IMG/VR virus record: IMGVR_UViG_3300017650_000224
Coordinates: 1-52,874 of that record
Direction: 5' to 3' (one strand)
Source: a virus
Lineage: Duplodnaviria; Caudoviricetes
DNA: 52,874 nucleotides
Part shown: one piece after another, positions 299 through 52,874 of the stretch
Layout of the letters: every line of letters starts with the position of its first letter
How positions within the stretch are numbered: the stretch's first letter is position 1
Notes under the pieces: generated by a model
Seen by the model: the letters and a program-made list of their open reading frames with translations, nothing else
What the model was told of the DNA's origin: nothing
Databases searched by the model: none
Translations under genes and position numbers: made by a program

Positions 299-963
299 CC
301 CGCCATCTCCATGGCCGTCAGCACCTTGCTTTCCAAGTCGGCAAGCGAGCCGGTGTTTTCGATGATGTCGTCTGCATCAAAGTCCATAGCCTCGCTGCTA
401 TGCGACCCGGCAATGCCGCCACGACCAACGACCCGCAGAACCACGCCGCCCAAGCTGCGAACGGTTTCCGCCTCGTTCTGGAAGCGGCAATCGTCAGTGA
501 CGATGCGGCCACCGTGCTCAACACAGTCGCGGGCAGCGTTCCACCACAGCCCGGTCCAAAGCTGCTCTCCGATACACCGCCTGCCCCATTCTGTCCCAAG
601 CGTCTGCATCGCGTGGCGCGGCGTCTGCCCCTGCAACCATGGGTGCGGGATTTCCTTTAGGTCGCCCTCGATGTGGGCGTCGGTCAGCCCAATTGCCCGC
701 ATCATCGCTTTCAGCGGCCCCGCGAACTTCACGCGGCTGTAACCGCGCCGAACGAGGATGTCGGCCGCCGTGGACTTGCCGGCACCAGCGAGGCCGGTGA
801 ATGCCACGACTTTCGGCCAAGTGGCGACCTGAGCGTGGTTGTCGTTGGCGGGGCGAAGGTGCGGCCAGTCGAGTGGTCCTAGCCCCCAGTCTTCGCGCTT
901 ATGGTGGCTCCACTTGAGATTGATGGGCGCCATTGGCAGATAAGCAGTTCCAGGAAACACCAT
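295..963 (-). CDS. Deoxynucleoside monophosphate kinase (T4 gp1/T5-like)
   Basis: P-loop GLAGAGKST, FAGPLK, TPRHAMQTLGTEWGR and DCRFQNE motifs; start placed at the TGATG overlap. Confidence 0.85.
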   Translation of the reverse strand: MVFPGTAYLPMAPINLKWSHHKREDWGLGPLDWPHLRPANDNHAQVATWPKVVAFTGLAGAGKSTAADILVRRGYSRVKFAGPLKAMMRAIGLTDAHIEGDLKEIPHPWLQGQTPRHAMQTLGTEWGRRCIGEQLWTGLWWNAARDCVEHGGRIVTDDCRFQNEAETVRSLGGVVLRVVGRGGIAGSHSSEAMDFDADDIIENTGSLADLESKVLTAMEMAG

Positions 964-1544
964 CACAACACCCCCATTCCACGCAATTCGCGCACACTCG
1001 AAAGCGCGTCGGTGTGCAGCACATACTGGCCGCCCTTCTTCTCCCACGCCGCCATGTTGACTGCCCGGTCGTCGACAAGAACGTCACCCGGTTGGCAATA
1101 GTCCGGCTTCTCGTGCGTCAAGCAGGTCACGACCTCCAAATCACCAACGTGACGTGCAATCCATTCCCGCTTCTGCACCGCGACCGCGTCGGCCCCGGCC
1201 TTAGGTAATGCGGTAAGCACCTTCGGATTGAGGTGCCTCACGCTTTCGAGTAGGAACCAAGCGTCCCGCATCGGCGGCAGGTCGAGGAAGAAATTCGGGT
1301 TGGCATTCAGCCCGGCCCAGAACGCTTTCGTGCCGTGGACCCACTCCCATTTGTACGTGTTGTCGGTTCCGAGCGCGGCACAGGCGGCCGAGTCGAAGTC
1401 GGCCAACACGCCGTCCATGTCGAGCCAGAGTTGGCCGGTGAACGGCGCGTTGCCGTATGCTTCGATCGCGCGCAATAATTCTGCCTCAGTCGGCACCCGC
1501 TCCACCGACTTGCGGGCGGCGATGTCGACAAGCTGGGCGGTCAT
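963..1544 (-). CDS. 5'(3')-deoxyribonucleotidase, HAD family (NT5C-like)
   Basis: LDMDGVLADF motif I and LVDD...N...W...GG motif IV. Confidence 0.8.
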   Translation of the reverse strand: MTAQLVDIAARKSVERVPTEAELLRAIEAYGNAPFTGQLWLDMDGVLADFDSAACAALGTDNTYKWEWVHGTKAFWAGLNANPNFFLDLPPMRDAWFLLESVRHLNPKVLTALPKAGADAVAVQKREWIARHVGDLEVVTCLTHEKPDYCQPGDVLVDDRAVNMAAWEKKGGQYVLHTDALSSVRELRGMGVL

Positions 1545-1690
1545 GTGCGCACCTCAGCTGCCGCCCCAATCACTCCAAGCACAATTGCCGAGAATGCCGA
1601 GAAGGCGCCCGCCGGGCTGTCGATACTAGTGGAAGCCAACGCAACGCACGCGCCGAATCCCGCCCAAATCATGGGTTTCAATCTTTCCAT
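1541..1690 (-). CDS. Small membrane protein (49 aa, MERLKPMIWAGFG...)
   Basis: Translated by hand; strong GAGGAG SD; ATGA overlap with the next gene. Confidence 0.6.
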   Translation of the reverse strand: MERLKPMIWAGFGACVALASTSIDSPAGAFSAFSAIVLGVIGAAAEVRT

Positions 1691-1738
1691 CTGTATTTCT
1701 CCTCTTGGTAGCGCGGGCTTGGTGGGCCCGACTTGGTG

Positions 1739-1882
1739 TTAGGCGGCGGCTCCCCAGAACCATCGCCCGGAGCGTTTGGGCGCGGAGTATCGCGGCCAGC
1801 CGTTATCGCGCAGCCGCAGAACCTTACCGATGGCTGTGCGCGAAAGGCGCTTCCAGCGGCGGGATTCTCTGTGGGAGGTCAT
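1739..1882 (-). CDS. Small basic protein (47 aa, MTSHRESRRW...WGAAA)
   Basis: Translated by hand; ATGA-coupled to the upstream ORF; GGAGG SD. Confidence 0.5.
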   Translation of the reverse strand: MTSHRESRRWKRLSRTAIGKVLRLRDNGWPRYSAPKRSGRWFWGAAA

Positions 1883-2112
1883 GCTGCAACCCTCCTAAAC
1901 AGCAATGTCTGGAAGTTCGATTTGATGAGGTCGCGCCACACTACTTCACGTAGACGCTGACCAAAAACCCTCGCTGCTTCATAAGCCGATTCAGCCAGCA
2001 CAAGCGGGACAACCAACACAATCAGTGCCAACGGCAGCGCCGCCCACATCACTATCCCGCGCAGAAAGCGATTCTTGATGTTGTGAATGTTCAATTTTCG
2101 GACTTTGCTCAC
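1879..2112 (-). CDS. Hypothetical membrane protein
   Basis: 77 aa, one TM segment, coupled overlaps on both sides. Confidence 0.6.
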   Translation of the reverse strand: MSKVRKLNIHNIKNRFLRGIVMWAALPLALIVLVVPLVLAESAYEAARVFGQRLREVVWRDLIKSNFQTLLFRRVAA

Positions 2113-16502: not shown

Positions 16503-16519
16503 ACTACCTCGATGGCGCG

Positions 16520-25151: not shown

Positions 25152-26384
25152 CTATGCCGCCGGTCTCGCCGGAGCCGGCGCCGCGGTGTTCTGGTTTGCG
25201 GCGACGCCGATCTGGTCGAGACGCTGCATGGTGCCGTTGACGATCGACTTATCCCCGCCAGCAGTCGGAGGCTTGCCTTCATAGGCCCGCGCTTCGTCGA
25301 CGTGGTAAATCCCGCTGTTGACCAACTTCGTGAGGAACTCTGCCCGCGCCGCGCTATCACCACGCAGCAGGTCTTCCATGTTGAACTTGACCTTGACCGT
25401 CTTGCGCTGCTCGGGCGTCAACAAATCGCGGTAGATGGCGTACTCGATACGCTTGAGCATTGGCCGCATGCAGGTCTTGGTGAACTGCAGAATGAGCTGC
25501 TCAATCCCGCTGCCCCATGCAGTGGCGTTATTGCCACCCACCATCACCGGCGGGATGCCATACACGCGGCAAATCTGCTCGACGATGTACTGACGGCTCT
25601 CAAGTAGCTGCGCGTCCTTCGGATTGATCGACATCGGGTAGGGCTTCATCCCGCCCTCAAGCGGCAATACCCCACCAGCCTTGTCGGCACCTGCGAACTG
25701 AGCGAACACATCGCCGATCTGCTTGCGCTGCTCGGGATTCAGAATCTGGTCGCTGGAGACGATCAGCGATGCCATGAGCCCGCTTTTCATCATTCGGCCA
25801 ACGGCCTTCTCGCCGGCCAGCGCGTTGCCAACCGTGTTCTTGGCGTACTCGATTGGCGAGAGCCCACGATCACACCCCGGTAGCGTTTTGCCCCGGACAT
25901 GAAACATGTTCTTTTCGCTAATGCGACGCTTCGTTCCGCCGTCCTCGGTAACCTCGTAAACACGCTCGTTGCGGCTGTTACGCTGCACGTCGACGGCAAG
26001 CGGCGCGTGCGGGTTGAGCGCCACAATCGCGCCGCTGCCGTTTCGCTTTATTTCCGCGAAAAAGTTTCCATCAAGACAGACGCACAGGGCGACCTGCGAC
26101 CAGAAATCCGGGGCCGTGTCGTCCATGTTCGGCAAGTAGTGCAGCAGTTCGAAGAGTGGGCTGTCCCGATCCTCTGTTACGCCATCAGCGCCGTACACGA
26201 CGCATGACAACGTTCCCACGGTATCAGAAATAAGCGTGGTGCAAGCCCACACCGCCTCCGATTGCAGCGCAGTTTCGTACGTGACTTTCTCGCCGCTCGT
26301 TGTCCCGAAGCCGAAAAAGCCCTTCCAAAAGGCGCCGTCGGTCAGCCGGATAACCCGACCAACCCACTTATCAATGAAGCCCAT
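25152..26384 (-). CDS. Portal protein, HK97 family
   Basis: GLSPI, DAQLLESR, ICRVYGIPP, LLRGD; ends AANQNTAAPAPARPAA. Confidence 0.95.
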   Translation of the reverse strand: MGFIDKWVGRVIRLTDGAFWKGFFGFGTTSGEKVTYETALQSEAVWACTTLISDTVGTLSCVVYGADGVTEDRDSPLFELLHYLPNMDDTAPDFWSQVALCVCLDGNFFAEIKRNGSGAIVALNPHAPLAVDVQRNSRNERVYEVTEDGGTKRRISEKNMFHVRGKTLPGCDRGLSPIEYAKNTVGNALAGEKAVGRMMKSGLMASLIVSSDQILNPEQRKQIGDVFAQFAGADKAGGVLPLEGGMKPYPMSINPKDAQLLESRQYIVEQICRVYGIPPVMVGGNNATAWGSGIEQLILQFTKTCMRPMLKRIEYAIYRDLLTPEQRKTVKVKFNMEDLLRGDSAARAEFLTKLVNSGIYHVDEARAYEGKPPTAGGDKSIVNGTMQRLDQIGVAANQNTAAPAPARPAA

Positions 26385-29868: not shown

Positions 29869-29943
29869 TGGTGCCAGCCGCAGGATTTGAACCCCCAACC
29901 TTCTCACTACAAAAGAGCAGCGCTACCATTGCGCCAGACTGGC
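29869..29943 (-). tRNA. tRNA-Thr(UGU), atypical
   Basis: GCCAGTC/GGCTGGC acceptor, GGTTCAAATCC T-loop, CCA end; mismatches in the anticodon and T stems. Confidence 0.75.
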
Positions 29944-30733: not shown

Positions 30734-31660
30734 CTAAGCGACAAATTTCTTGATTGCGGCTGCAAGGTTGTCATTTGCCGCCATCAATGCCCGCTTGCCG
30801 CCCTTGCGCCGCGCGTATTCACGCTCCTGCCCAACCGCCTCGCCAATGTCGGCCAGCGTTCGCGCCGTCATGGCAGCATCCAGCGCCTTACGGTCCTTTT
30901 CACGCAGCGCCTTCCGGACTCTCCGCCACACACGGACGTTCTCCACCCGATGCGCGACGTCCTCCCACGCAACCGAGCCGGTCTCACCTTTGCGCCCCTT
31001 CTGCATACCGATGAAGCTTTCTGATACGCGGACCCCGCCGCAAGGCAGGCCTGGAGGGTAATGTTTGATGGCTGGCATAATAGGGGTGTTGGCGACTGCC
31101 TCGGCAATCAATGCTCGCGATTCAGCCGCCGTCAAATCCCTGTCCTCGGGCTCTCGGCGGCGCCTTCTCCCCTTAATGTGGCGAGCCGGTTCGGTGGCCA
31201 AGGCATCAGCAAAGAAGGCATTGCTGGCTTCCCGCTGTGCCTCCGAATAGCCGGCCCCGCCTGCTTGCGCCTGCAAGCGCTCCGCGGTGCGCAGCATTGC
31301 TCCTGCAGGCATTAGACGGTCGTATTCCTCAACTCGGCCTGCTGTATTCCGTCGATAAGCTTTTTCCGTCTGTGTGCCATCGCTGAAAGTCAGGCGGCCG
31401 ATTGCTGTGATCTGGCCCTTGTGGTTTCGTTGAACAGGTCCTCGCTTCACATGCCGCATGATTTCCTGGACGGATGGCGTAATCAGAAGGTTGCGCTCAA
31501 AGCCGTAGTCAGCGACCTCTTCGGGGTCGAAGTTGTCGTTTGCCGGAACTGTCGACCAATTGGACTGAACGGGCTCGGCATGTTCCGGGCGATTGCGATA
31601 GGCAAGCACGAATGAGAGTTGCTCGGCAAGCGAGCGACGAGAGCTTTTGGTGGGTGTCAT
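30734..31660 (-). CDS. Putative late-gene regulator (Q position, C-terminal HTH-like)
   Basis: Last gene before the late leader; TLADIGEAVG helix; two ANDN motifs. Confidence 0.55.
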   Translation of the reverse strand: MTPTKSSRRSLAEQLSFVLAYRNRPEHAEPVQSNWSTVPANDNFDPEEVADYGFERNLLITPSVQEIMRHVKRGPVQRNHKGQITAIGRLTFSDGTQTEKAYRRNTAGRVEEYDRLMPAGAMLRTAERLQAQAGGAGYSEAQREASNAFFADALATEPARHIKGRRRRREPEDRDLTAAESRALIAEAVANTPIMPAIKHYPPGLPCGGVRVSESFIGMQKGRKGETGSVAWEDVAHRVENVRVWRRVRKALREKDRKALDAAMTARTLADIGEAVGQEREYARRKGGKRALMAANDNLAAAIKKFVA

Positions 31661-35402: not shown

Positions 35403-36106
35403 GCTGCCTCGCGGTGTGTGGTGATGTCTGCCAATGCGTGGCCGCCCCACTGGTCGGCCATGGCTGCAGCAATCCCCGGAAAGAACCGACTTCTGCGGGC
35501 TGCGCGGTCCGGACCGGGACTGGCCTTATGAATTTCGTCTCGAGCTGTGGACCCATCCAGCGTGCCTGTCGGGGTGAGCTTCGGCAGGCCCTTCAGCCAA
35601 AAGCAGGTACGCTTTTTTACGTTGTCCGGGCCGTCCGGATCGGTCCCGAACTGCCAAGGCTGGACGCTTTGCGCGGCCGGCTCAAAGTTGCGAATGCGCG
35701 CCTTGGCGTGCTTGTGCATCACGGGGTTCTCGATGGCGATGCGAGGGATAGGCGCGTTCCAGCAATCGGAAAACAATGCGCAGCCCTCCTCGAGTTCGGC
35801 CCACATCTCCTCAAGCGTGCGTCCCGGTGGCGGCGCCGATAGCCAGCGCACCCCACTATTTGTGAGCCGCGTGCACGGAGGATGCATGACGGCCAGCAAA
35901 TCCCAGCCGTCGTTCAGGTGGTTGCGAATGTCGCCGACGATGTGCCGGTTGGTGCGGTCCTCGGCCGGCTTGATGTCGATAGACCACACGTCGTGTCCCA
36001 GCGCATCGAATGCCCGCCGTACGATGCCGGAGCATTCACAACCGATCAGAACGCGCAACGGCTCAAAGTCGATTGAGAGTTGATTGTCATTCGCCGCCCG
36101 CGTCAA
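35399..36106 (-). CDS. Small DNA cytosine-5 methyltransferase-like protein
   Basis: RVLIGCECSG, HPPCT, IENP, QPWQFG, KKRTCFW; TTGA-coupled start. Confidence 0.75.
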   Translation of the reverse strand: MTRAANDNQLSIDFEPLRVLIGCECSGIVRRAFDALGHDVWSIDIKPAEDRTNRHIVGDIRNHLNDGWDLLAVMHPPCTRLTNSGVRWLSAPPPGRTLEEMWAELEEGCALFSDCWNAPIPRIAIENPVMHKHAKARIRNFEPAAQSVQPWQFGTDPDGPDNVKKRTCFWLKGLPKLTPTGTLDGSTARDEIHKASPGPDRAARRSRFFPGIAAAMADQWGGHALADITTHREAA

Positions 36107-36465
36107 AACGGAATCTCCCTCTCCCGAATAACCGCCCGCAGCCCATCGGCGCAGGCGCCCCAAATCGCGCGGATGAACTCCTCGGCGTTCTCCTCCTCCC
36201 ACTCGGCCAAGTCGGAGCCGAACCGGTGCACAAACGGCGTGACCGCATCCACGGCCCGGCTGACGGCGGCGCGCTCCAACGGCGACCACACGCGGATGGA
36301 TTTGATGGTGTCGAGCATGAGCAGACATTCTCCGCAGAGATAGCGTGGGTCTTGCTGGGGGTTGCCTATGCCCGCGCCGTGGGCGTGCCGGGCGCAGGCG
36401 TAGCAGGTGGTCGGGAAGCGGGTTGCGGGGTCGACGGTTGGCTGGAACGGGGCGGCTTGGGTCAT
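36103..36465 (-). CDS. Zn-binding hypothetical protein (DUF6511-like)
   Basis: CYAC...CGEC, GSDLAEW, ends EIPF. Confidence 0.65.
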   Translation of the reverse strand: MTQAAPFQPTVDPATRFPTTCYACARHAHGAGIGNPQQDPRYLCGECLLMLDTIKSIRVWSPLERAAVSRAVDAVTPFVHRFGSDLAEWEEENAEEFIRAIWGACADGLRAVIREREIPF

Positions 36466-36532
36466 GCCGGCCGCCCATTGGCGTGGCAATAGTTCGATGT
36501 CATGCTGCCTCCTGTTTTGAATTGGGGGCTGA

Positions 36533-37344: not shown

Positions 37345-37914
37345 TCATGCCGCATCCCTCCCGAACAAATTATCATTCGCCGCAGCTGGAAATTTCCCGA
37401 CCTCATTCCCCCACGCCGCCCAACCGGGCCGGGCCTGCCGGGCGAACAGCTCCAGATACGGCCCAGCGACTAGCGCCTCGATGCGCTGATATTGCTCGTC
37501 GGGCTTGCGGGAATGTTCGCGGCGAGGAGCGCGAATTACGGAGCGCACGCCCTTGCTAAGCCGCCGAGGCTTGCCGCGTTTGAACAGGTGGCAGATTTCC
37601 ACTTCCTGCCGGGTCCAGTAGCCCATGCCCATGCGCCCCTTATCCCAGACAAAGGCGATTGACACAGGCTCGAAGCCCCAAGTTCGGCCGACGTCGATGG
37701 CAGCGGCCTGCAGGTGGGAAACAGTCCACATGAACAGCAGGCAATCTTCGGACGCGACGTCGCCGACTGGCAGCGCCTTGATGTCGGTCAGCGACATGAC
37801 ATCATAGGGCTGGACACCGCGCGCCGGGGCGAGGTTCTTCTTGCTGTAGGTCGTGAATCCCCACGGCGGGTCCGCGAGCACGGCACCAAATGGGCCGCTG
37901 GGTAGCGGGTTCAT
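37345..37914 (-). CDS. MT-A70 family adenine methyltransferase
   Basis: ADPPW, LFMW, GMGYWTR, HSRKP, LELFAR, WGNE; ends AANDNLFGRDAA. Confidence 0.9.
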   Translation of the reverse strand: MNPLPSGPFGAVLADPPWGFTTYSKKNLAPARGVQPYDVMSLTDIKALPVGDVASEDCLLFMWTVSHLQAAAIDVGRTWGFEPVSIAFVWDKGRMGMGYWTRQEVEICHLFKRGKPRRLSKGVRSVIRAPRREHSRKPDEQYQRIEALVAGPYLELFARQARPGWAAWGNEVGKFPAAANDNLFGRDAA

Positions 37915-38230: not shown

Positions 38231-38772
38231 GCCACCCGCACCGTCAGGCCAGGCTCGCCCGGCTTCATCTCGGCGCCGGCCACCTTCTTGCCTGCCTTCA
38301 GGCGCTCGCCGATAGCGGTCTTGTCGGGGCTTTTCACTACCCGCATCGCCCACTTCGGCAACCGGGTTTCGTCGGTGATCAGCACGGAGTCCCGCCCTTT
38401 TGACACGGACAACGTGCCTTCCGGCAACTGCACGCGCTGCTGCCCCGCCGCGGTCATCAGCCGGAACATCAAAGCCCGCATGGCGTCCTGCTTACGGCTG
38501 AACCGCTCCTGCCGCTGCCGCAGTTCACCTATACGGTCAGCAATCGCGGCGCTGAAGTGCTTGGCGTCTTGGGCGCCACCCAAGAGCCGGGCCAACAAGT
38601 CGTTGAACCCCATGCCTTCGAACGTGTCGGCGGCGAGGTCAGAATCGTCGGCTAGTTCCGGGAAGTCACGCTGAACCGCCTCAAGGTGCAGGGTGAACTC
38701 CTGCACGTCGCGGGCGAGGAATGCGTTGTCATTGGCTGGTGCCGTTGGTGTGGTGTTTGTTTTTGCCGTCAT
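38227..38772 (-). CDS. Siphovirus Gp157-family protein
   Basis: DTFEG, coiled coil, PDKTAIGERLKAGKKVAGAE. Confidence 0.85.
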   Translation of the reverse strand: MTAKTNTTPTAPANDNAFLARDVQEFTLHLEAVQRDFPELADDSDLAADTFEGMGFNDLLARLLGGAQDAKHFSAAIADRIGELRQRQERFSRKQDAMRALMFRLMTAAGQQRVQLPEGTLSVSKGRDSVLITDETRLPKWAMRVVKSPDKTAIGERLKAGKKVAGAEMKPGEPGLTVRVA

Positions 38773-39125: not shown

Positions 39126-40862
39126 TCAGAACGGGATGAAGTCCTCCCCTGCGACCAGCGCGGAAAGCCGCTCGCGCTCGTTGTCGTTTGCTGGCTCGCG
39201 TATTGCGTCATTGCTTGGCGACGCGCCCGCGCGCCAATACTCAACGTTCCAAAACTTCCCTTTTTTTACGACGCTGATCTCCGTGGTGATTACGAGCTCG
39301 TCGGCCCGGTCCAGAAACTCGTCGACCGTCAACGGAAATGGGAGATCCCCGCCGTGAGTGCGCCAAAACCGGTCAGACTTTTGCTTGAAAAAACCGGCAC
39401 CCTCCGGGCCGACGAAATCCTTCTGAACGGTTAGCCCAAGCTGGTAGTCAATGCGCACACACGGGCCTGCCTTTCCGGCGTGCTTTCGGAACGTCCGCCC
39501 GGTCACTCCGCGCCATACGGGCTCGGTGGTGGAGAGGATTGGGGCGTCGGAGGCGCGGGCGGCATGCTTAGGCTCCTCGCTTGGCGGAAATTCGTAACCG
39601 CAGCAGGTGCACACACGCACCGATGCATGCAGGATTTCCTCGCAGGTCGGGCAGATTTTTACAGGCGCGTCCCCGTCACCCTTGCCGGGCTTCTTAGGCT
39701 CGACCATATCCACTGGGCCGTGCTTCTCGACCAGCCCAGCGAAATCGAGCACAAGGCAGTTTGGCTTTGGGCCAGCCGCAATAGCCTCCAGTCGCTGCTC
39801 GGTGGTTTCCAGCGGCATTCCCGGCGCATACAGTACGCGCACCCCGCGCCCAGCCATTTGCAAATACAAAGCGGCTGACAAAGTGGGCCTCATGAATGCG
39901 ATTAGGTCGACACCCTTATGATTGAAGCCCGTCGTCAACACTGAATTGTTGGTGATCGCCCGCAGTCGATAAGCCTTGAAATCCTCGATGATGCGCCTGC
40001 GTTCCTCGGGCGGCGTTGTTCCGGTTATCGTCTCGCACGACACACCCCGCTTGCGGATTTCGTCGCGGATATGCAGCGCGTGGTCGACGCCTGCCCCGAA
40101 GATAAGCCAGGACTTTCGGTCGGTGCCCTTAGCGACGATTTCGTCCACCGCCGCTGCCGTAACCTCCTCGCGGTCCACTGCGCGCTGCATGGCGCCCTGC
40201 TTGTAGTCGCCTCCCAGCCGCCCCACGCCGGCCATGTCAAAGCCCGTCGCAGTTGGCTTGCTGGACAGCGGGGCAAGATAGCCGTCGCGCACGCCGGGGC
40301 CGATGCCGTATTCGTATACAACCTTATCGAACAGCCGGTCTTCGCCTTCGTCTAGCCTGCCGCTATCCAAGCGGAATGGCGTCGCCGTAAGCCCCAACAG
40401 CTTCATGTCCGGGTTTTGTTCGCGCAGCCCTTTGATAAACTGGCCGTACATGGTCTCTGTCTTGGCCGGAATTAGGTGCGCCTCGTCCACCAACATGACG
40501 TCGAACGCGCCATTGGCCGTAAGGGCCCCGACCTTGTCCCAAACAGTCTGGATACCGCAGAACAAGACCTGTGCGTGACGATCACGCCGCCCCAGGCCCG
40601 CGGAATAGATACCCGCCGGCGCGAACGGCCACATGCCGAGCAACTCCAGATAGCTCTGCTCGATCAGTTCGGCCACATGCGTGACGACAAGAACACGCAT
40701 GTCCGGCCAGCCGGAAAGCAGCCGCTTGATGATCTCAGATAGCACCGCGCTCTTGCCAAGCCCCGTGGCCAGGTCCACGAGCGGGTTCCCGGGCTCGGAC
40801 GCCCAGTAGTCGAACACCGCCTGGACTGCTTCTTCCTGATAGGGGCGGAGAACGAGAGTCAC
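39126..40862 (-). CDS. SF2 DEAH helicase with Zn finger (RadD/YejH-like)
   Basis: LRPYQ, TGLGKS, DEAH, TATP, QMAGRG, CPTC...CTCC. Confidence 0.92.
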   Translation of the reverse strand: MTLVLRPYQEEAVQAVFDYWASEPGNPLVDLATGLGKSAVLSEIIKRLLSGWPDMRVLVVTHVAELIEQSYLELLGMWPFAPAGIYSAGLGRRDRHAQVLFCGIQTVWDKVGALTANGAFDVMLVDEAHLIPAKTETMYGQFIKGLREQNPDMKLLGLTATPFRLDSGRLDEGEDRLFDKVVYEYGIGPGVRDGYLAPLSSKPTATGFDMAGVGRLGGDYKQGAMQRAVDREEVTAAAVDEIVAKGTDRKSWLIFGAGVDHALHIRDEIRKRGVSCETITGTTPPEERRRIIEDFKAYRLRAITNNSVLTTGFNHKGVDLIAFMRPTLSAALYLQMAGRGVRVLYAPGMPLETTEQRLEAIAAGPKPNCLVLDFAGLVEKHGPVDMVEPKKPGKGDGDAPVKICPTCEEILHASVRVCTCCGYEFPPSEEPKHAARASDAPILSTTEPVWRGVTGRTFRKHAGKAGPCVRIDYQLGLTVQKDFVGPEGAGFFKQKSDRFWRTHGGDLPFPLTVDEFLDRADELVITTEISVVKKGKFWNVEYWRAGASPSNDAIREPANDNERERLSALVAGEDFIPF

Positions 40863-41680: not shown

Positions 41681-42159
41681 GCCGCCCTCCGCACCAGCTT
41701 CCCTCGCGCTTCCTTTTCAAGCTGCTGGATCCGCGAACGCGAGACGCCCCGATCGTTTGCAATCTCCTGGTGCGTGTCGCCCATGGCCCGCCGCAGCAGC
41801 ACATCGCCGTCCTTGACGCCGGACAGGTGAGCTAACACCGCTGAAAGCTGCGCGTGGTCAGGCTGCGCCGGCTCGACCCTGCCCGATGGCAGTTCTTCTT
41901 GCTGCTCCATCTCCCATACCTTCTCCGTGACCTTGCGATAGTTGCGTGCAGCGTCGCGCGCCTGCCAAACCAGCCAGCGATAAAACGTGCCTTTCTCGGG
42001 GTCGAAGTTCGCCCACCGGCGGAGCGCCAGTTCAACTGTGTCAGCGACCACCTCCTCGGCGCCATGGCGGGTCAATCGCCACACGCGGCGCCGCAGCGCG
42101 TCCATGTGGTCGAGCAATAGGCGGTCGAATGATGCGGGGCGCACTGAGGGCGTTGTCAT
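41677..42159 (-). CDS. ECF-type sigma-70 factor-like protein
   Basis: FDPEKGTFYRWL (region 2) and EIA..RGVSRSRIQQLEKEA (region 4). Confidence 0.8.
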   Translation of the reverse strand: MTTPSVRPASFDRLLLDHMDALRRRVWRLTRHGAEEVVADTVELALRRWANFDPEKGTFYRWLVWQARDAARNYRKVTEKVWEMEQQEELPSGRVEPAQPDHAQLSAVLAHLSGVKDGDVLLRRAMGDTHQEIANDRGVSRSRIQQLEKEARGKLVRRAA

Positions 42160-44599: not shown

Positions 44600-45658
44600 C
44601 TACACCCTCATCGGCATCAGGACGCCGCACCAGTTATCGTTCGCGCCGACAATCCTCGCCGGGCTGCTGCTATCGCTGATTTCAAACGTCACCTTGCCGC
44701 CCTCGACGGAGCGCAGCATTTCGGTGAGATAGCTGGCGTTGTAGCCAATATCGAAAGGCTCACCGGTGTAGTCGGCAGCCAGTTCGTCACTCGCCTGCCC
44801 GCCCTCACCGTTGACAGTAAACGTCACGCCGCCCGGAGCGACTTCGAGCTTCACGGCCTTGCCTCCCCGCTCGCTGGCGAACACACCGACCCGCTCGACG
44901 GCAGCCGACATAAGGGCACGGTCCAGTGTCACCGGCCGGTCGTTGTTCTTGGGGATGACACGCTCGTAATCGGGGAACGTACCTTCGACCAGCTTGGATA
45001 CAATCACCGTATCGCCAGCGGTGAACCGGATGCGGCCCGGCCCGATATCGACCTCAATTTCGCCCGACGGGATCATGCCGACCGTCTTGCGCGGAATGAT
45101 GATGCCCTCGGGCAGGTCAAGGTCAGGCCCATACACTGCCGCCAGCCGGTGTCCGTCGGTCGCCACCGCGCGCAGCCGGCCGTGGACAGAGTGCAGGTAC
45201 ACGCCGTTGAGATAGAAGCGCGTCTCTTCGGTCGACATGGCAAAAGCGACCGGCGCGAGCAGCGCGGCCAAGTCTATGGCTAGGCCCACCGGGTACGCCG
45301 GCTGGGTCATGGTCGGGAAGTCTTCAACCGGCAGCGTGGCAACCTTGAACCGGCTGCGGCCATGGGAAACGGTCAGAATGCCACCGTCCAGCGCCAGCGA
45401 GATTTCGGCGCCATTGGGCATCCGCTTGGCGATATCGAGCAGCGTGCGCGCTGGTGCGGTTGTGGTGTCGAGTGCGCCGTCGGCTGGAACCGAAGTGGTG
45501 ATTTCAACGTCTGTATCTGTGGCGCGGACCGTCAGTTTGCTGGCGTCAGCGCTCAAAAGAACGTTCGCCAAAATCGGAACGGTGTTGCGTGTTTCCACCG
45601 CTTTGGTCGCCTGCGTGAGCGCAGCGACTAGGTGGGCCTTCTCTACTCTGAGTGCCAT
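44600..45658 (-). CDS. dnaN: DNA polymerase III beta sliding clamp
   Basis: PILANVL, ATD, TRFYLNG, VATDGHRL, GTFPDYERVIP, ends LMPMRV. Confidence 0.93.
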   Translation of the reverse strand: MALRVEKAHLVAALTQATKAVETRNTVPILANVLLSADASKLTVRATDTDVEITTSVPADGALDTTTAPARTLLDIAKRMPNGAEISLALDGGILTVSHGRSRFKVATLPVEDFPTMTQPAYPVGLAIDLAALLAPVAFAMSTEETRFYLNGVYLHSVHGRLRAVATDGHRLAAVYGPDLDLPEGIIIPRKTVGMIPSGEIEVDIGPGRIRFTAGDTVIVSKLVEGTFPDYERVIPKNNDRPVTLDRALMSAAVERVGVFASERGGKAVKLEVAPGGVTFTVNGEGGQASDELAADYTGEPFDIGYNASYLTEMLRSVEGGKVTFEISDSSSPARIVGANDNWCGVLMPMRV

Positions 45659-45733: not shown

Positions 45734-46291
45734 TTACCCCCAAGGGCGCTTTTTGGTCCCACCTGCCTGCGCTTGCGCGGCAGGCCGGGCGTTGTCGTTG
45801 GCCGCTGCTCGCTGGTTATCGTTCGCCGGGCGTGCGGGCTGGTTGGCGTCGATTGCGGGGACGGGCACGTTGCCTTGGTCCGGGAAGTAGTAGGCCTTGA
45901 TCTCGGCACGGGCGGGGTACTGGCCGTCCTTCGACGGCTTGCCCAAGCCGATTTTCACCGTGAAGCCCTTGAACAGAAGTTCATCGGTGTCCTCGACGCC
46001 GTCGAGTTCAAGGGCGCGGCAGAGGCTCGCAAATTGGCGCTGTCCAATCTCTTGGGCAGTGGGATTCGCGTTTTCCAGGTTGTAATTGTTGAAGATCAGC
46101 CGACCCTCATATTCCTCGGGCTCAAGCACTTTGTTGACGGTCTTGAGGATCGTCCCGTTGCCTGCCTTCGTGGGGGCGACGTCCGCTTCGGTGACTTCGA
46201 GGCGATAGATGCCGTTGGGCAGTTCCTCGTAGTCGGGCCGCTGCTCGGTGTCATGTTGAGTCGCGTCGAAACGCTGACCAAGTCTGGCCAT
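45734..46291 (-). CDS. DUF669 single-stranded DNA-binding protein
   Basis: LPNGIY, GRLIFNNYNL, acidic/flexible tail ending KKRPW; near the Sak4-like gene. Confidence 0.8.
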   Translation of the reverse strand: MARLGQRFDATQHDTEQRPDYEELPNGIYRLEVTEADVAPTKAGNGTILKTVNKVLEPEEYEGRLIFNNYNLENANPTAQEIGQRQFASLCRALELDGVEDTDELLFKGFTVKIGLGKPSKDGQYPARAEIKAYYFPDQGNVPVPAIDANQPARPANDNQRAAANDNARPAAQAQAGGTKKRPWG

Positions 46292-46340: not shown

Positions 46341-47168
46341 TCACGCCGCCTCATCATCGGCTTTGTCGTTGTCGTTCGCTGCGCCGAAGGCCAGTGAGGG
46401 CTGGAACTCCCCGGTGGTTGTCGCGCCCTTGGTCATGTTTTCGGCCTCCCATAGAGGCTGGAGGTTCGAGAGCGACCATGCACGCTTGAAGTCCAAGTCA
46501 TCTGGACAGTTATAATTGTGGGCCGACAAAGGTACTTTGTGGTCGATATGCCAGCCACCGCGCCCGTAGTTCTCCCAAGACATCCCAGGCTGAAATAGCT
46601 TTTCCAGATGGGCCATTAGTTCATCGACGCTGTATCCAAGAATATCGAATGTCCGCCGTGATGCTTTTGCGCCTTTCGTAATCCCGCGGTGCACGCCAAC
46701 AGAAATGGAGTTCTCAAGTCGACCCTTTGGAGTAGAGCGCCTACGCTCATCCCGCCTTCTGCCAGACTCCCTAACGCGCTCTGGGTCTTCCTCCATTGCG
46801 CGCCGGTACTTTGCTTTACCCCTCTCCCGCTCGGATTCGGCATTCGCTTCTCGCCATGCCTTGTTGTATGCGCGGTGAAAGTCAGGGTCTTCGGCATATC
46901 GCGCCCGCGATCTTTCGCGGTCCCTCTCCCTTTCTTTCTCAATGTTTTTCAGGCGATACAGGCGCCTCGTCTCTCGAACCTCATCCGGCTTTTCTTCGCG
47001 ACGTTTCTTGGCTCTCATTCGAAAGCAAGCATGACACCCGCCCTGATGTGTGTTGCGCTTGTCGATGTGTCCGTTCTTGCAGGGCCTTCCTGTGAAATAG
47101 TGCTTGGACCCCTGCGCCTTGGCTTCCGCGCGTGATCGAGGAAGCCGCTGGCCGTTTTCGGCTGCCAC
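46341..47168 (-). CDS. HNH endonuclease with N-terminal Zn ribbon
   Basis: LEKLFQPGMSWENYG..WHIDHKVP...NLQPLW..EN; ends AANDNDKADDEAA. Confidence 0.85.
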   Translation of the reverse strand: MAAENGQRLPRSRAEAKAQGSKHYFTGRPCKNGHIDKRNTHQGGCHACFRMRAKKRREEKPDEVRETRRLYRLKNIEKERERDRERSRARYAEDPDFHRAYNKAWREANAESERERGKAKYRRAMEEDPERVRESGRRRDERRRSTPKGRLENSISVGVHRGITKGAKASRRTFDILGYSVDELMAHLEKLFQPGMSWENYGRGGWHIDHKVPLSAHNYNCPDDLDFKRAWSLSNLQPLWEAENMTKGATTTGEFQPSLAFGAANDNDKADDEAA

Positions 47169-47170: not shown

Positions 47171-47953
47171 CTATGCCGCTACTCTCTCGCCGCCCGGCAA
47201 GAACTTCGCCAGTTCCGCAAAGCCCTGCCCTTTTTTAAATGGAATGCTATCGGGCATGGAGTGGCGATTCTTCGCTACAAAGCCGGGTTTCTCGTTGAGG
47301 TGAACAAGCCGCTCATTGCCACCCTCGGCGCGGGAGACCTTCTTGTTGAAGCCGACCTCTTTCTCTTTCAAGGAAATGCGGTAGTTGACGAACGCGACGA
47401 TGTCCGCCTGCTCCCGCACGAGAGCATTCGCCCGCCTGTGCAACTTGATCGTGTAGCGGGAATAGGGATCCGAGGTCGGGCTATCGAACCTAATAATCTC
47501 GGGGTGCGCGAGCTGGACCACATAGATTCCAGCCCGCGAAAGCGCAGAAACGGCCTGCAGGTACTCGGTCCATTCTGCATCAGCCTCGATGTACCCGCGA
47601 CCATACCCAACGGCCTCAATCGACTCCACGCCGAGGCGAGCGCATGTTGCCTTCCAGATTAAGGGCTCCAACCCGTCCAAGCTGTCGACAACGACTGTGC
47701 GGAAGTCATGCTCCTCGGTCAGCAGCTCGCCGAAGATGTCGAGCAGCCCGTGGAAGGATTCCACAACGCCCGGCGTGGTCAGCTCTACGTCGCTGGGCGG
47801 CGTCTCGCCTTCCGTCGGCAGGTAGATCACCGGCCCGGGGAACTCGGCGGCCAGGCTGGTTTTGCCCACGCCGTCGACGCCGTAAATCACGGTGCGCGGC
47901 GGGTTGTTGGATCTGGTGGTGGTGAGGCTAGCCAAAGACAAAGCCATTCGCAT
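47171..47953 (-). CDS. Sak4-like AAA ATPase (ssDNA annealing)
   Basis: IYGVDGVGKT, VVDSLD, GYGRGY, AKNR. Confidence 0.85.
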   Translation of the reverse strand: MRMALSLASLTTTRSNNPPRTVIYGVDGVGKTSLAAEFPGPVIYLPTEGETPPSDVELTTPGVVESFHGLLDIFGELLTEEHDFRTVVVDSLDGLEPLIWKATCARLGVESIEAVGYGRGYIEADAEWTEYLQAVSALSRAGIYVVQLAHPEIIRFDSPTSDPYSRYTIKLHRRANALVREQADIVAFVNYRISLKEKEVGFNKKVSRAEGGNERLVHLNEKPGFVAKNRHSMPDSIPFKKGQGFAELAKFLPGGERVAA

Positions 47954-48663: not shown

Positions 48664-49689
48664 TCAGGCGGCGGTGAGGGCCGACAGAGGAACGCCGTGG
48701 CTGGGGTTACGCAGGCCAGGAATGTTGACGTTGGCGTGCGTGCCATGAGGGTGAATGCCGGTCACCTTCACGCGCAGAGTCGCGAACTGCCCGGGGCGGA
48801 TGGTGGAATCGACCAGCAACAATTCGTCGTCTCGCCACCATTCGAAGCCTACATGGCCGGAGCAGCTGCGAAGTGACATGACACCCTTAGCGTTGCGGGT
48901 TGCGACGACGAACTCCCTGTCGTCTTCCTTCACCCGCACTCGATCACCCACTTTGAACTTCGGCTCTGCAGGCGTTGCTGTTGCGGGACCAAGCGCAACG
49001 GGGTCTTCATCCTCGGACGGCCATTCGGCGACGAGGTCGTATCCCGCCGTCATTTCGTTTCGATTGGGGCTGCCCACCGGCCAAAAACTGCCGTCCTCGT
49101 GCCACGCCTCAACGAAGTCGTGGTTATTGCCGTCAGAGCGCCAAAAGAAAGCCCCGCCACCACGTCCACGACGCACAGGCCCGACCTTCCGCCCGTCGCG
49201 CGTGCGGTAATAACGCCCGACTTGGATTTGCAGCGCGTCTGCCCCTTGCGCTTGCGCGGCAGTTGGCAGGGGTTCAAAGTTTTCCAGTAGTCCACGGAGC
49301 GACCAGTTGTGCTCCCGGTTGCCTGCCTCGTCGGTCAAGTGGAACATGCGCTCGCCGCCGCCGCCGACAATTTCGTACTCACCGTCACGCCGGTAGTAAT
49401 GGCTATCCTTGCCCTTCCACCGAACCCGATCCCCAACCTTGAACTTGACCTCGGTGCTCTGCTGGCCACCCTGCTCCTGCTCGGCACGTGCAGGGGTGTC
49501 GTCGTTGGCGGCGTCAAGAACAGTCAGGCTGCGCTTGGCCCACCAGACCTTAACACCGCTCAACCACGTACTGTCGCCGATGCATCCGGCGTACCGAACC
49601 TGCCGCTCGCCCTTTCTCTTCCCGACAATCGTTCCGACGTCACCGTCTTCGTCGCGCACACGTGCGCCAATACCGTATTTACCGGCCAT
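48664..49689 (-). CDS. Multi-SH3/KOW-like repeat protein
   Basis: Repeated KFKVGDRVR-type units and GRYYRTRDGRKV. Confidence 0.7.
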   Translation of the reverse strand: MAGKYGIGARVRDEDGDVGTIVGKRKGERQVRYAGCIGDSTWLSGVKVWWAKRSLTVLDAANDDTPARAEQEQGGQQSTEVKFKVGDRVRWKGKDSHYYRRDGEYEIVGGGGERMFHLTDEAGNREHNWSLRGLLENFEPLPTAAQAQGADALQIQVGRYYRTRDGRKVGPVRRGRGGGAFFWRSDGNNHDFVEAWHEDGSFWPVGSPNRNEMTAGYDLVAEWPSEDEDPVALGPATATPAEPKFKVGDRVRVKEDDREFVVATRNAKGVMSLRSCSGHVGFEWWRDDELLLVDSTIRPGQFATLRVKVTGIHPHGTHANVNIPGLRNPSHGVPLSALTAA

Positions 49690-49751: not shown

Positions 49752-50021
49752 CTAGTTCGCGACCGGGAACGGCACGACCACTCCGGTCACTTCGGCTTCT
49801 TCCGCGTCGGCGTCATCGTGCCGCTCGACCAATGAAAGCTGGGACTCGGACCACTCGCGCTCTTGCGGCGAGCCTGTGCCGTCGATGTATTCGACCCAGT
49901 AGGTGGCTTCCTTGCGCATATGGACGGCCCAGCCCGTGATAAAGCCAACAATGGCCGAACCCAAAATCCGAACGCAGTCGCCGATGTAGAAGCCGTCGTC
50001 TTGGTCCGCCGGGCCGGTCAT
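49752..50021 (-). CDS. Small SH3-like hypothetical protein
   Basis: FYIGDCVRI...YWVEY...WSESQL. Confidence 0.65.
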   Translation of the reverse strand: MTGPADQDDGFYIGDCVRILGSAIVGFITGWAVHMRKEATYWVEYIDGTGSPQEREWSESQLSLVERHDDADAEEAEVTGVVVPFPVAN

Positions 50022-50239
50022 GCCGCCACCTCAACTGGATAGACGTCGTGGGACTTGAACCACTGACGGACCTTCCGCCCGTCAGGCAGCACCTGCTCGA
50101 CCCAGTAATGGTCGCCGGTGGGCCCGTCCTTGCGCTCGACGATCGTGCCGCGCAGGGTCACCTCGACGGTTTCGCCGAGGCCGTAATCGTATTGCTTTGC
50201 GGCGGGCTGGGTCGCCACTGCCTGCTGCATCCCGGTCAT
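50018..50239 (-). CDS. Small SH3-like hypothetical protein
   Basis: YGLGETVEV...YWVE...WF; ends EVAA. Confidence 0.65.
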   Translation of the reverse strand: MTGMQQAVATQPAAKQYDYGLGETVEVTLRGTIVERKDGPTGDHYWVEQVLPDGRKVRQWFKSHDVYPVEVAA

Positions 50240-50382
50240 GCCGCTGCCTGCTGGATGGAAATGCGCGGCAGCTTGATGTCGATGTAGCGCAGCGTCGTGT
50301 TGCAGCCGGTTTCGATCAACCGACGCACTGTGGTGGTTGGGCGCTTACCGCTGGGGCGTCTCGCTGTATCCGTTGAATTCAT
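50236..50382 (-). CDS. First early ORF (48 aa, MNSTDTARR...QQAAA)
   Basis: Translated by hand; GAGGAG SD; ATGA overlap. Confidence 0.55.
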   Translation of the reverse strand: MNSTDTARRPSGKRPTTTVRRLIETGCNTTLRYIDIKLPRISIQQAAA

Positions 50383-51528: not shown

Positions 51529-51810
51529 ATGACGAACGGCATTACCAGCACCACGATTCCCGTCAGAAGACCTGATGGCGCGAGCTGCGTGTCTGGGCTT
51601 GTCCTGGCTCGCGCCTTCGCAGGGGATAACGAACGGACAATCGAGGAGGCGCGGCCGGACCCATTCGGCCGCGTATTTGCATCGAGCGTCGAGCCGATGT
51701 GCCGCCCCGACCACAAGGCCAAGAAGCACGGCCGCCCGAAGCCGAAGAAGTGGGCCCGCAGGGCTGACCGGCGGGCAGCGATGCTGGAGCTGGTGGGAGA
51801 CGGGGAATGA
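51529..51810 (+). CDS. Basic hypothetical protein
   Basis: GAGGAG SD; first ORF of the rightward operon. Confidence 0.65.
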   Translation: MTNGITSTTIPVRRPDGASCVSGLVLARAFAGDNERTIEEARPDPFGRVFASSVEPMCRPDHKAKKHGRPKPKKWARRADRRAAMLELVGDGE

Positions 51811-52079
51811 GTGTGTTCAACTGGACGATGGTGCCGCAGGTTGGTGACTGGTGGGGGGACAAGCCAGCCGAGATTGTTGGCCCGAACGGCAGGACGATAG
51901 CCACGTTGGTAATGACCGAGAACCCGGCCGACGCCAACGCAGTGGCTGCAAAAATGGCCGCCGCTCCTGAAATGCTGGAAGCGCTAAGGCAGGTCAAAGC
52001 ACAGTGCCAAGAGTTCTTGCCACTTGGGTTGGACCAGCAGATTTGCGACGCGCTCAACAAAGCCGAGGGCCGGTTATGA
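51807..52079 (+). CDS. Phage hypothetical protein
   Basis: ANA..MAAAPEMLEAL motif. Confidence 0.75.
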   Translation: MSVFNWTMVPQVGDWWGDKPAEIVGPNGRTIATLVMTENPADANAVAAKMAAAPEMLEALRQVKAQCQEFLPLGLDQQICDALNKAEGRL

Positions 52080-52249
52080 CCACGCTCGCCCTGCGGTCCG
52101 GCCACTGGCGCCCCACCCTATCCGAACACGACCGACAATTCCTGCGCGCCCTGCCATGGGGCTTGCTCGCCGCAGCTGCAACGCTGGCGCTCTGCTGGCC
52201 GCTGCGCTTTGACGGCGAAATGATTTGGGTGGCTTTGGCTGCCCTCTAA
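52076..52249 (+). CDS. Small membrane protein
   Basis: 57 aa, ATGA-coupled, hydrophobic. Confidence 0.55.
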   Translation: MTTLALRSGHWRPTLSEHDRQFLRALPWGLLAAAATLALCWPLRFDGEMIWVALAAL

Positions 52250-52341
52250 CCGCCCCGCTTGCCGCGCCCTAGCGCGCAATCGGGCAGCCTGTACCACCAC
52301 CCGGCCTCACCAGCCACCACCTACCACGAGGAGAAATTCAA

Positions 52342-52569
52342 ATGGCTATTTCGCATTTGCCGACCGCCTTCACCTACCCGGTTATCACCGCCGACCGCGC
52401 CCTTGCCGCAGGCATTTCTGCCGGGTCACTCGCCGCAACCGCCGATTGGAACCAACGGCGCGCCAAGGGTCCGGACAAGCAGCGCCGACTGGCTCAGGCC
52501 GCAGAACTGCGGCGGGTTGCTGCGCAACTGGCCGCAAATGACAATGGTGAGCGGAGGGTGGCGGCGTGA
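52342..52569 (+). CDS. Small protein ending in an ssrA-like tag
   Basis: GAGGAG SD; ends AANDNGERRVAA. Confidence 0.75.
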   Translation: MAISHLPTAFTYPVITADRALAAGISAGSLAATADWNQRRAKGPDKQRRLAQAAELRRVAAQLAANDNGERRVAA

Positions 52570-52874
52570 CCCGCTACACACGCCCTGAGCCGGTGCCGCA
52601 ATGGGTGAGCGGGCCGGCGAATGATAACGGACGTCAAAGCGTCCTACCACGGTCCCTGCCACCGATCGGTCTTTCGCGCGAAACTGCCGCTGCCTACATC
52701 GATATTAGCCCGAGCAAGTTCGACCAGCTCGTGGCGGATGGCCGAATGCCTCGACCGAAGAAAATCGACGGACGACGGGTTTGGGATCGGGTCAAGATCG
52801 AGCGATACTTCGCTGCCCTGCCGGGTGACGAGGATGGTTCCGAGGAGCAAGATGAATGGGCCGCCTACTGCTAG
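52566..52874 (+). CDS. Excisionase-like AlpA/HTH protein
   Basis: GLSRETAAAYIDISPSKFDQLVADGRMPRP...RRVWDR. Confidence 0.8.
   Translation: MTRYTRPEPVPQWVSGPANDNGRQSVLPRSLPPIGLSRETAAAYIDISPSKFDQLVADGRMPRPKKIDGRRVWDRVKIERYFAALPGDEDGSEEQDEWAAYC

Follow-up and report, generated by a model that had tools for sequence, protein, structure and literature searches.

Why should a tailed phage write the first residues of its host's trans-translation tag into a dozen unrelated proteins of its own? The question is raised by a 52,874-nucleotide stretch of DNA (hereafter the window), which is the whole of the virus record IMGVR_UViG_3300017650_000224 (Duplodnaviria; Caudoviricetes), and by the tetrapeptide ANDN within it. 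A six-frame scan of the window finds 14 copies of ANDN, all in the reading frame of 12 long open reading frames (ORFs), and 0 copies outside the true coding frames. An earlier annotation made from the letters alone (the first-pass annotation) had listed 14 in-frame copies in 12 proteins, and proposed that they mimic the ssrA tag encoded by the host's transfer-messenger RNA (tmRNA), so as to be read by the adaptor SspB and the protease ClpXP. Rescanning gave the same count and coordinates; on the plus strand the motif itself starts at 52534 and 52617, the earlier values being 3 nt lower through counting the residue before it. Judging from the sequences, ANDN is a peptide motif under selection, which copies the part of the tag that, besides a terminal (L/V)AA, is conserved across alphaproteobacterial hosts.

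ANDN in the phage proteome and in host tags

The copies are spread over the 12 ORFs, from the deoxynucleoside monophosphate (dNMP) kinase and a DNA methyltransferase onwards, with two each in a protein of the family phrog_36072 and in the DUF669 single-strand-binding protein (SSB). The chance test used 67 ORFs with 14,974 amino acids, taken from our own codon-score caller after four small conflicting ORFs had been dropped and two added by hand. For this set, composition predicts 0.105 copies of ANDN against the 14 seen (Poisson P 2e-25); in 20,000 within-protein shuffles the mean was 0.109 and the maximum 3, so that 14 was never reached. ANDN is the most over-represented tetrapeptide of the window proteome. 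The second is ETET, found eight times in a single tail-region protein (19833-20351, minus strand) that contains an alternating threonine–glutamate run (TETETE...).

The motif is also sharply defined. Alanine precedes 14 of the 15 NDN tripeptides in the window proteome, and single-substitution variants of ANDN number only 10 in total, each occurring at most twice; they are so few that all four residues must matter. Among the variants are AANEN (32887), AANDD (49498) and AANQN (in the portal protein, 25188), as had already been noticed. The 14 copies are encoded by 11 distinct 12-mers, which use GCC, GCG or GCA for alanine, AAC or AAT for asparagine and GAC or GAT for aspartate, and which differ at third codon positions only. 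Selection therefore acts on the peptide, as the free variation of codons had first suggested, and a repeat at the level of DNA is ruled out by the same 12-mers and by the frame count (14 of 14 in frame).

Within the genome, ANDN is lacking from the structural block (3.5-30.7 kb), although this block holds 7,381 of the 14,974 residues (49%); the first-pass annotation, likewise, saw no exact copy in capsid or tail proteins. Within proteins, eight of the 14 copies sit 7-18 residues ahead of the stop codon, and 11 of 12 lie no more than 30 residues from a terminus (in the ORF set without the kinase and methyltransferase copies). In the exonuclease, MT-A70 methyltransferase, endonuclease VII-like protein, DNA methyltransferase, Gp157 and excisionase-like protein, the motif falls outside the limits of the Pfam or PHROG profile match, and the segments that carry it are probably accessible and unstructured. 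The copy in the beta clamp (DnaN) is the exception. It may be a chance copy, as it lies inside the folded C-terminal domain and is not kept in either orthologue.

The host can be named. The helicase of the window is 100% identical to part of a 301-kb contig from a Pelagibacterium sp. metagenome-assembled genome (MAG), and the window maps in reverse orientation to C66:117242-170097 of that MAG. The MAG copy (GTDB) is 18 bp shorter than the window somewhere within ~2,075-29,874, with flanks that are otherwise colinear. The two-piece tmRNA of the MAG encodes the tag ANDNYAEARLAA, that is, ANDN plus eight residues, and a gene for SspB (PF04386, E 6.7e-46) follows 139 nt downstream of ssrA. Both the tag and the adaptor presupposed by the first-pass annotation are therefore present in the host. 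The host SspB is homologous to the solved Agrobacterium and Caulobacter SspB structures 2nys (2.9e-55), 2qas and 2qaz. It aligns with 2nys from end to end, including the C-terminal VVSLDAFRKK, which probably binds ClpX. Four further host genomes (Ferrovibrio, two Rhizobium and one proteobacterial MAG) encode the tags ANDNRVALAA, ANDNYAEARLAA and, twice, ANDNNAKGYALAA. Thus, the tag starts with ANDN in all five host genomes examined, and all five have a PF04386 SspB, whose gene directly adjoins the tmRNA gene on the same strand at a distance of 139 to ~160 nt (C58:72718-73640 in genome G001; also G002-G005).

The phage itself has no tmRNA that could be detected: ARAGORN finds only tRNA-Met and tRNA-Tyr in the window. 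These two tRNA genes (anticodons CAT and GTA) are adjacent at 29792-29943 on the minus strand, between the head module and the regulatory region. All phage copies of ANDN are encoded in ORFs and are therefore mimics of the tag rather than products of trans-translation.

The proteome of the host shows no such habit. A DNA pattern coding for ANDN has 23 sites in the 3.1-Mb host genome, against five for the same pattern read backwards; 14 of the 23 lie in the prophage, one is the tag-coding part of ssrA and eight are elsewhere (two internal to long ORFs, six in short ORFs of 37-158 codons from stop to stop). The motif does not occur in any of 343 host ORFs (112,264 amino acids) sampled from 388 kb of host DNA. 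These figures settle the comparison with the host that had been proposed, and rule out ANDN as a feature of the host proteome. The pattern averages 4.7 matches per Mb in 40 other genomes of the same class (control 2.2; the average is 4.67 with genome G045 and 4.66 without it), compared with 265 per Mb in the window. Chance or composition as the source of the motif is ruled out by this baseline and the backward-read control, together with the shuffles and the expectation given above. In the four further hosts, the pattern is again concentrated in prophage regions; for example, 19 of the 34 sites in Rhizobium esperanzae fall within one 61-kb stretch.

The strongest point had been missed by the first-pass annotation: many copies are not isolated tetrapeptides but look-alikes of the whole tag, with Ala-Ala at the spacing of real tags. 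Five tails in the window, AANDNEPASEGRVAA, AANDNLFGRDAA, AANDNDKADDEAA, AANDNGERRVAA and AANDNLAAAIKKFVA, start as the host tag does and have a similar length; four end in Ala-Ala and one in VA. Accordingly, four of the 14 window copies stand at the extreme C-terminus with Ala-Ala-COOH, plus the one in VA, while the others are N-terminal, internal or otherwise ended. Among related phages, 33 instances have 4-13 residues after ANDN, of which 21 end in AA and eight more in a single A. Host tags share only ANDN and the terminal (L/V)AA, so the phage tails keep exactly what the tags have in common.

C-terminal Ala-Ala is itself enriched, being approximately fourfold commoner in the ORFs of the window (12/72) than in those of the host (15/343; Fisher P 6e-4). 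The three complete phages taken together give 47 of 228 ORFs against the same 15 of 343 (Fisher P 2e-9). Such ends also occur without ANDN, in the sigma factor, the Sak4-like ATPase, the portal protein and several small ORFs. AA-ended ORFs that lack ANDN lie, all on the minus strand, at 1879-2112, 41677-42159, 47171-47953, 48664-49689, 50018-50239 and 50236-50382. In two cultured phages, Rhizobium phage RHph_TM3_3_14B and Rhizobium phage 16-3, the orthologous counterparts of the sigma factor, the Sak4-like ATPase and the 48664-49689 protein also end in AA or VA.

Distribution of the motif among phages

A megablast search of 24 kb against the phage collection gave no match; a protein-level search did find relatives. 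Searches based on the helicase returned 22 IMG/VR loci and five genome loci. Relatives with a high guanine-plus-cytosine (GC) content carry 2-11 copies of ANDN per 4-22 kb locus, all on the gene strand; locus L011 (47% identity, 63% GC) has none, and ten distant relatives (~52% GC) have 0 or 1. The tail or linker of the helicase holds one or two exact copies in 11 of the 13 distinct relatives at 47% identity or more. Of the two remaining helicases, that of locus L009 shows degenerate forms (VNDN and NNDN) and that of L011 shows none. The distant helicases that were read (5/5) keep an acidic tail ending ...IPF without ANDN; the motif was therefore inserted in this lineage.

Both cultured phages share the enrichment, as do related prophages, in line with what had been anticipated. 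RHph_TM3_3_14B has 18 copies of ANDN (0.15 expected) and an AA end on 18 of its 75 ORFs; in phage 16-3, the called ORFs hold 13 copies and a six-frame count gives 18 (0.11 expected), with 17 of 81 ORFs ending in AA. ANDN is the top tetrapeptide in each. Moreover, the motif recurs in tails at orthologous sites, between proteins of 23-67% identity: in the exonuclease (3/3), the helicase (3/3), the SSB (3/3) and the portal protein (2/3). The exonuclease orthologues of the two cultured phages end in AANDNVPAEQRRVA and AANDNVPASERRVA, and the portals of RHph_TM3_3_14B and 16-3 have exact tails, PANDNKSDDEAQAA and TANDNQEDEAEAA. Both positions in the phrog_36072 protein are kept in two of two orthologues, and a kinase-like ORF of phage 16-3 has ANDN at the place equivalent to that in the dNMP kinase of the window. 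Relatives of the DUF669 SSB carry one or two copies followed by a conserved RRPWG end, which in the window is KKRPWG. Finally, portal and tape-measure proteins of relatives also carry ANDN. For this reason, the earlier description of the carriers as early proteins was too narrow, while the proposed mimicry itself came through all comparisons made at the sequence level (reading frames, host proteome, relatives and host tag).

In total, 122 distinct instances of ANDN were collected from 15 sources, which are related and not independent. Of these instances, 69 lie no more than 30 residues from the stop; ANDN is preceded by A in 61 and by P in 41. When IMG/VR was scanned for two copies in tandem (ANDN-x4-ANDN), at least 119 stretches matched. 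Among the 80 that were listed, 61 high-GC loci hold 274 copies in 591 kb, most of them in helicase or SSB tails. The other 19 have less than 55% GC and were excluded from this density; many of them are suspected to be unrelated repeats rich in asparagine and aspartate, as four show three matches at a 36-bp period and some have giant-virus contig names.

The motif is not confined to one gene set. It also occurs on some contigs whose gene content overlaps little or not at all with that of 16-3-like phages, for example as a tandem copy at the start of a protein and in a tail ANDNTRQPEKAA. In eight loci of 65-68% GC (L063, L074, L092, L104, L110, L111, L130 and L136), a protein family opens with a tandem copy (..MIGANDNGAGIANDN..) approximately 240 residues ahead of the stop, and the contigs of this family have few or no genes in common with 16-3-like phages.

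Elsewhere the motif is absent. Gamma- and betaproteobacterial relatives from Pseudomonas, Stenotrophomonas and Variovorax with the same type of helicase have 0 ANDN and no other outlying tetrapeptide that resembles a tag; this rules out a habit of all phages with this helicase module. ORFs ending in AA number 0/103 in two gammaproteobacterial relatives and 0/49 in the Variovorax relative. Nor does ANDN occur in RcapMu or Brucella phage Tb, two alphaproteobacterial phages of other kinds (0 copies in each); a habit of alphaproteobacterial phages in general is thereby ruled out. The trait is therefore lineage-specific, rather than general to phages or to the host class, and belongs to one or a few lineages of temperate alphaproteobacterial phages. 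A search for an analogue in E. coli gave three matches to a pattern coding for ANDEN against two for the control in O157:H7 Sakai (one genome, rich in lambdoid prophages; exact pattern only).

Carrier proteins and neighbouring modules

The identities of the carriers were partly revised (Table 1). Family matches agree with the names dNMP kinase, MT-A70, Gp157, superfamily 2 (SF2) helicase, DnaN and DUF669, whereas the supposed metallophosphoesterase is a DNA repair exonuclease (phrog_704) and the supposed HNH protein is an endonuclease VII (phrog_1035). The protein first labelled a C5-methyltransferase matches phrog_757, DNA methyltransferase; the one labelled a late regulator matches phrog_36072, a family of unassigned function; and the one labelled Xis matches phrog_25900/phrog_66, an excisionase-like helix-turn-helix protein.

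Table 1. Sites of ANDN and tag-like tails in the window, with carrier proteins
Position	Strand	Feature	Carrier	Basis or placement
838..849	-	PANDN in N-terminal extension, 12 residues ahead of P-loop strand	dNMP kinase	Scan and PF21448
2112..2156	-	Complete tag look-alike AANDNEPASEGRVAA-COOH	DNA repair exonuclease (phrog_704, E 1.3e-121)	Past profile end (37-434 of 454)
25155..25202	-	Degenerate tag AANQNTAAPAPARPAA-COOH (AANQN...RPAA)	Portal protein	Profile and variant scan
30737..30781	-	Tail AANDNLAAAIKKFVA-COOH	phrog_36072 protein	Scan and orthologue comparison
31532..31543	-	PANDN at residue 40	Same phrog_36072 protein	Kept in RHph orthologue
36083..36094	-	AANDN at N-terminus	DNA methyltransferase (phrog_757)	Residues 5-8 if inferred TTG start holds
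37348..37383	-	Complete tag look-alike AANDNLFGRDAA-COOH	MT-A70 methyltransferase	Past Pfam domain (9-171 of 189)
38725..38736	-	PANDN at residue 21	Gp157	Before Pfam domain (55-181)
39129..39191	-	C-terminal tail PANDN-x17, end DFIPF-COOH, SSB-tip-like	Helicase	
44633..44644	-	GANDN within C-terminal domain; doubtful member	Beta clamp (DnaN)	
45791..45826	-	Tandem PANDNQRAAANDN in C-terminal tail	DUF669 SSB	
46344..46382	-	Complete tag look-alike AANDNDKADDEAA-COOH	Endonuclease VII-like protein (phrog_1035)	Past profile end (98-258 of 275)
52531..52566	+	Complete tag look-alike AANDNGERRVAA-COOH	75-residue ORF	No family match; weak coding score
52617..52628	+	PANDN at residue 18	Excisionase-like helix-turn-helix protein	Before profile match (27-91)

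The placement of the motif in the DNA methyltransferase depends on its start codon, which is likely the TTG at 36106-36104, giving M-T-R-A-A-N-D-N. This TTG overlaps the stop of a conserved upstream gene (36103-36489) in a TTGA start/stop overlap. The long form of the methyltransferase ORF (35399-36478, minus strand) overlaps the same conserved gene in another frame; counted from the TTG, the PHROG profile covers residues 16-230 of 235.

Several tails combine ANDN with other short modules. The consensus for binding to the beta clamp is QL[SD]LF, and the methyltransferase tails of L004, L005, L006, L010 and L002, of RHph_TM3_3_14B (36794) and of 16-3 (52619) follow the pattern ANDN-x-P-...-(Q)LSLF or DLF-x2-3-AA. 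The MT-A70 protein of the window retains only ...NLFGRDAA of this pattern. ANDN itself does not match the clamp-binding motif, and the QLSLF or DLF that follows it is a separate module. Similarly, the helicase end ...EDFIPF (39129-39143, minus strand) and the end ...REIPF of a small phrog_19707 protein (36103-36489, minus strand; ...APF in orthologues) look like the C-terminal tip of a bacterial SSB, whereas the DUF669 SSB encoded by the phage ends in ...RPWG. The likeness suggests that phage proteins with IPF-type ends may dock where the tail of the host SSB docks.

The prophage runs past window position 52874 (15959-17260 of locus L041, on host contig C66). A tyrosine integrase gene there (PF00589, E 4.2e-13) shares its edge with the excisionase-like gene, whose end it overlaps, and is followed after 138 nt by a gene for tRNA-Phe, the likely attachment site of the prophage.

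What might read the motif

The tag of E. coli is AANDENYALAA; that of Caulobacter is given as AANDNFAEEFAVAA in an excerpt of PMC9393093. The phage tails resemble such tags in their opening residues and length, many of them also in C-terminal Ala-Ala, and in that their hosts carry SspB beside ssrA. As far as the available part of PMC9963277 describes it, the E. coli SspB binds the tag's seven opening residues and tethers substrates to ClpX, the tail of SspB binding the N domain of ClpX while ClpX engages the C-terminal end of the tag; an adaptor-binding segment and a ClpX-binding end would be split in the same way in the phage tails. An equivalent role is ascribed to the Caulobacter SspB in the excerpt of PMC9393093, citing Chien et al. 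There are also differences. The real tag is added in translation by tmRNA to broken products, whereas the phage copies are written into intact genes; the middle part of the phage tails is unrelated to that of tags, and many phage copies are N-terminal, internal or without an AA end. The phage motif is thus not a strict member of the ssrA-tag family, since it is not added by tmRNA, and our claim is rather that it would work like one.

We consider it moderately likely that the phage genome encodes mimicry of the host ssrA tag, in which ANDN would be bound by SspB and the terminal AA by ClpX, so that the proteins are turned over or tethered; binding, degradation and benefit to the phage are what we infer here. 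Two forms can be distinguished. In the first, a C-terminal [A/P]ANDN is followed by 5-12 variable residues and (A/V)A-COOH, as in five proteins of the window; these are predicted to be SspB-enhanced ClpXP degrons, which would be read like products of trans-translation. In the second, single or tandem copies occur in proteins of replication, recombination and regulation, within flexible segments (N-terminal extensions, linkers and tails). Such copies would tether their proteins to SspB and, via the SspB tail, to ClpX, with delivery, remodelling or competition as the purpose. The likely result is that nucleases, methyltransferases, regulators and portal not yet assembled would stay short-lived unless made in bulk or shielded by a partner. 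The fully tagged proteins (the exonuclease, two methyltransferases, the endonuclease and small regulators, with the portal in relatives) would harm a lysogen if their expression were leaky, which fits a role of the tails in keeping them short-lived. In relatives, the arrangement of the methyltransferase tails suggests that clamp binding at the QLSLF or DLF between ANDN and AA could shield the degron.

Docking of the host SspB (residues 1-125) with MT-A70 residues 140-189 lends weak support to this mimicry, with a score of 0.60 against 0.01 for the best control, runs that agree in at least 75% of contacts and a partner pLDDT of at least 46. In the calibration of the tool, 51 of 78 solved complexes reached the mark, as did 2 of 108 mismatched pairs; scores of 0.60 or below were seen in only five of the 78 solved complexes and in all four passing mismatches (of 180). 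The pass may also reflect memory, because a like complex (2qaz) has already been solved. Several points weigh against the mimicry, the weakness of the docking result by this calibration among them. Beyond ANDN, the phage tails are unlike tags, with proline at +2 in 43 of the 122 instances and the aromatic residue at +1 of tags being rare; affinity could be low if SspB of the alphaproteobacterial type needs tag residues past ANDN. Helicase and SSB tails have no terminal AA, so degradation is no obvious outcome for them, and for essential replication or portal proteins a constitutive degron would seem a costly feature. The lineage restriction (0 copies in RcapMu and Brucella phage Tb) fits a lineage-specific partner as well. 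Lastly, 11 of 20 Ala-ending ORFs (7 GCA-TGA, 4 GCG-TGA) coincide with potential start/stop overlaps, and part of the excess of terminal Ala may stem from these. As a full explanation, a by-product of ATGA or GTGA overlaps was rejected, since it cannot account for the penultimate Ala, for ANDN, or for the contrast with the gammaproteobacterial relatives.

A bolder version of tag mimicry is offered tentatively and with some doubt. The phage lineage might run a proteome-wide degradation code taken from the host's ribosome rescue, in which complete encoded tags hold nucleases, methyltransferases, regulators and free portal near zero where expression is leaky, as in lysogens; bulk synthesis on induction would saturate SspB and ClpXP, and all tagged proteins would then accumulate jointly, like a switch. 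Abundant SSB and helicase, with tandem ANDN and no AA end, would act as competitive anti-adaptors; the common protease queue would serve as a noise filter and timer for the decision between lysis and lysogeny, and clamp or SSB-tip partners would shield single tails.

It is also conceivable, though we rate it as unlikely, that the partner of ANDN is a hub protein encoded by the phage or a different host protein (some other reader of ssrA tags, for example), and that the likeness to the tag is coincidental or secondary. The lineage restriction speaks for such a partner, as Brucella phage Tb has the same types of helicase, Sak4-like annealing protein, SSB and primase and yet no ANDN; so does the company that the motif keeps, since clamp-like QLSLF or DLF, SSB-tip-like IPF and RRPWG are typical of modular interaction tails. 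However, coincidence hardly explains identity at four of four positions to the conserved start of the tag together with a terminal AA at equal spacing. Contigs such as L063 and L110 share few or no genes with 16-3-like phages and still carry ANDN and ANDN...KAA tails, and the motif persists where head modules differ (portals of 23% identity, an S49 prohead protease versus another), while no candidate hub emerged.

Titration shares its binding partners with the preferred mimicry and differs in its point. Here, the motifs would bind SspB and the AA ends ClpX in order to saturate adaptor and protease during lytic growth, thereby stabilising other proteins or stopping host processes that depend on ClpXP. 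The number of copies (14-18 per genome) suits such a decoy, as do the tandem copies, with no terminal AA, on SSB and helicase, which are expected to be abundant; saturable coupling of substrates through ClpXP and SspB (proteolytic queueing) is known from synthetic circuits, going by the excerpted text of PMC12013620. The keeping of complete tags on specific low-copy enzymes (the exonuclease, methyltransferases and endonuclease VII) looks instead like control of single proteins, and titration as the main purpose seems improbable.

Cleavage of the tails at ANDN by a protease is very improbable: the motif does lie at boundaries between domain and tail, but no protease is common to all carriers (that of the window's head module is of the S49 type, and the trypsin-like protease of 16-3 and RHph_TM3_3_14B has no window orthologue in the comparison table), and neither N-terminal copies at residues 5-40 nor tandem copies fit a single cleavage logic. 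A nucleic-acid signal (a binding site, a skewed oligomer, or pausing at the N, D and N codons, all three of which are decoded by queuosine-modified tRNAs) or a by-product of composition would suit the fact that every copy follows the coding strand, but has next to nothing left in its favour once the strictly third-position variation (11 12-mers in 14 copies), the empty other frames, the shuffles that never exceed three copies, the A or P before ANDN in 102 of 122 instances and the backward-read control (five versus 23) are considered.

Tag mimicry, as preferred here, has several partial precedents. The RseA fragment ending in VAA, MuA, the Mu repressor and lambda O are clients of ClpX or SspB with signals on single proteins. 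They resemble the phage proteins in having encoded or exposed ClpX signals, in adaptor-assisted delivery and in the handling of phage replication and transposition proteins by ClpX. Their signals are, however, their own and on single proteins; none is known to copy the adaptor-binding segment or to span a whole proteome. During prophage induction in Staphylococcus aureus, fragments of the CI repressor are removed in a ClpX-dependent manner, so that there, too, a temperate phage relies on host ClpX for a switch in its life cycle; in the part of PMC10584840 available, that case concerns one substrate, without tag mimicry and without SspB. Engineered ssrA or DAS-type tags and their queueing are a further likeness, as tag variants set protein lifetimes via SspB and ClpXP and a common protease couples the substrates (excerpts of PMC8138137 and PMC12013620). 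Those tags are man-made, whereas here evolution in a phage lineage appears responsible. In eukaryotic viruses, mimicry of short linear motifs likewise involves many viral proteins that copy a host recognition peptide in disordered regions; a bacterial degradation tag copied by phages is not described in the literature searched.

No account of phages that encode tag mimics came up in full-text searches, within a coverage that is incomplete and leaves subscription journals mostly outside. The tag, SspB and ClpXP are already known, and so is the handling of single phage proteins by ClpX. What appears to be new is the start of a host tag encoded across a phage proteome, often as part of whole tags, and kept across a lineage. 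If this reading is true, it would be the first case of a bacterial virus copying the trans-translation tag of its host across its proteome, and would show that a phage can make general regulatory use of a host adaptor and protease by directing its own proteins to them. The tails would then form a natural collection of over 100 SspB-type peptides that differ in their spacers, and the motif would be a sequence signature by which contigs of uncultured phages could be assigned to alphaproteobacterial hosts. A tractable model would also be at hand in phage 16-3 of Sinorhizobium and in the phages of Rhizobium etli, where adaptor proteolysis, clamp binding and control of lysogeny can be studied side by side. 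Mimicry of ANDN would also bear on why alphaproteobacterial tags keep these four residues invariant.

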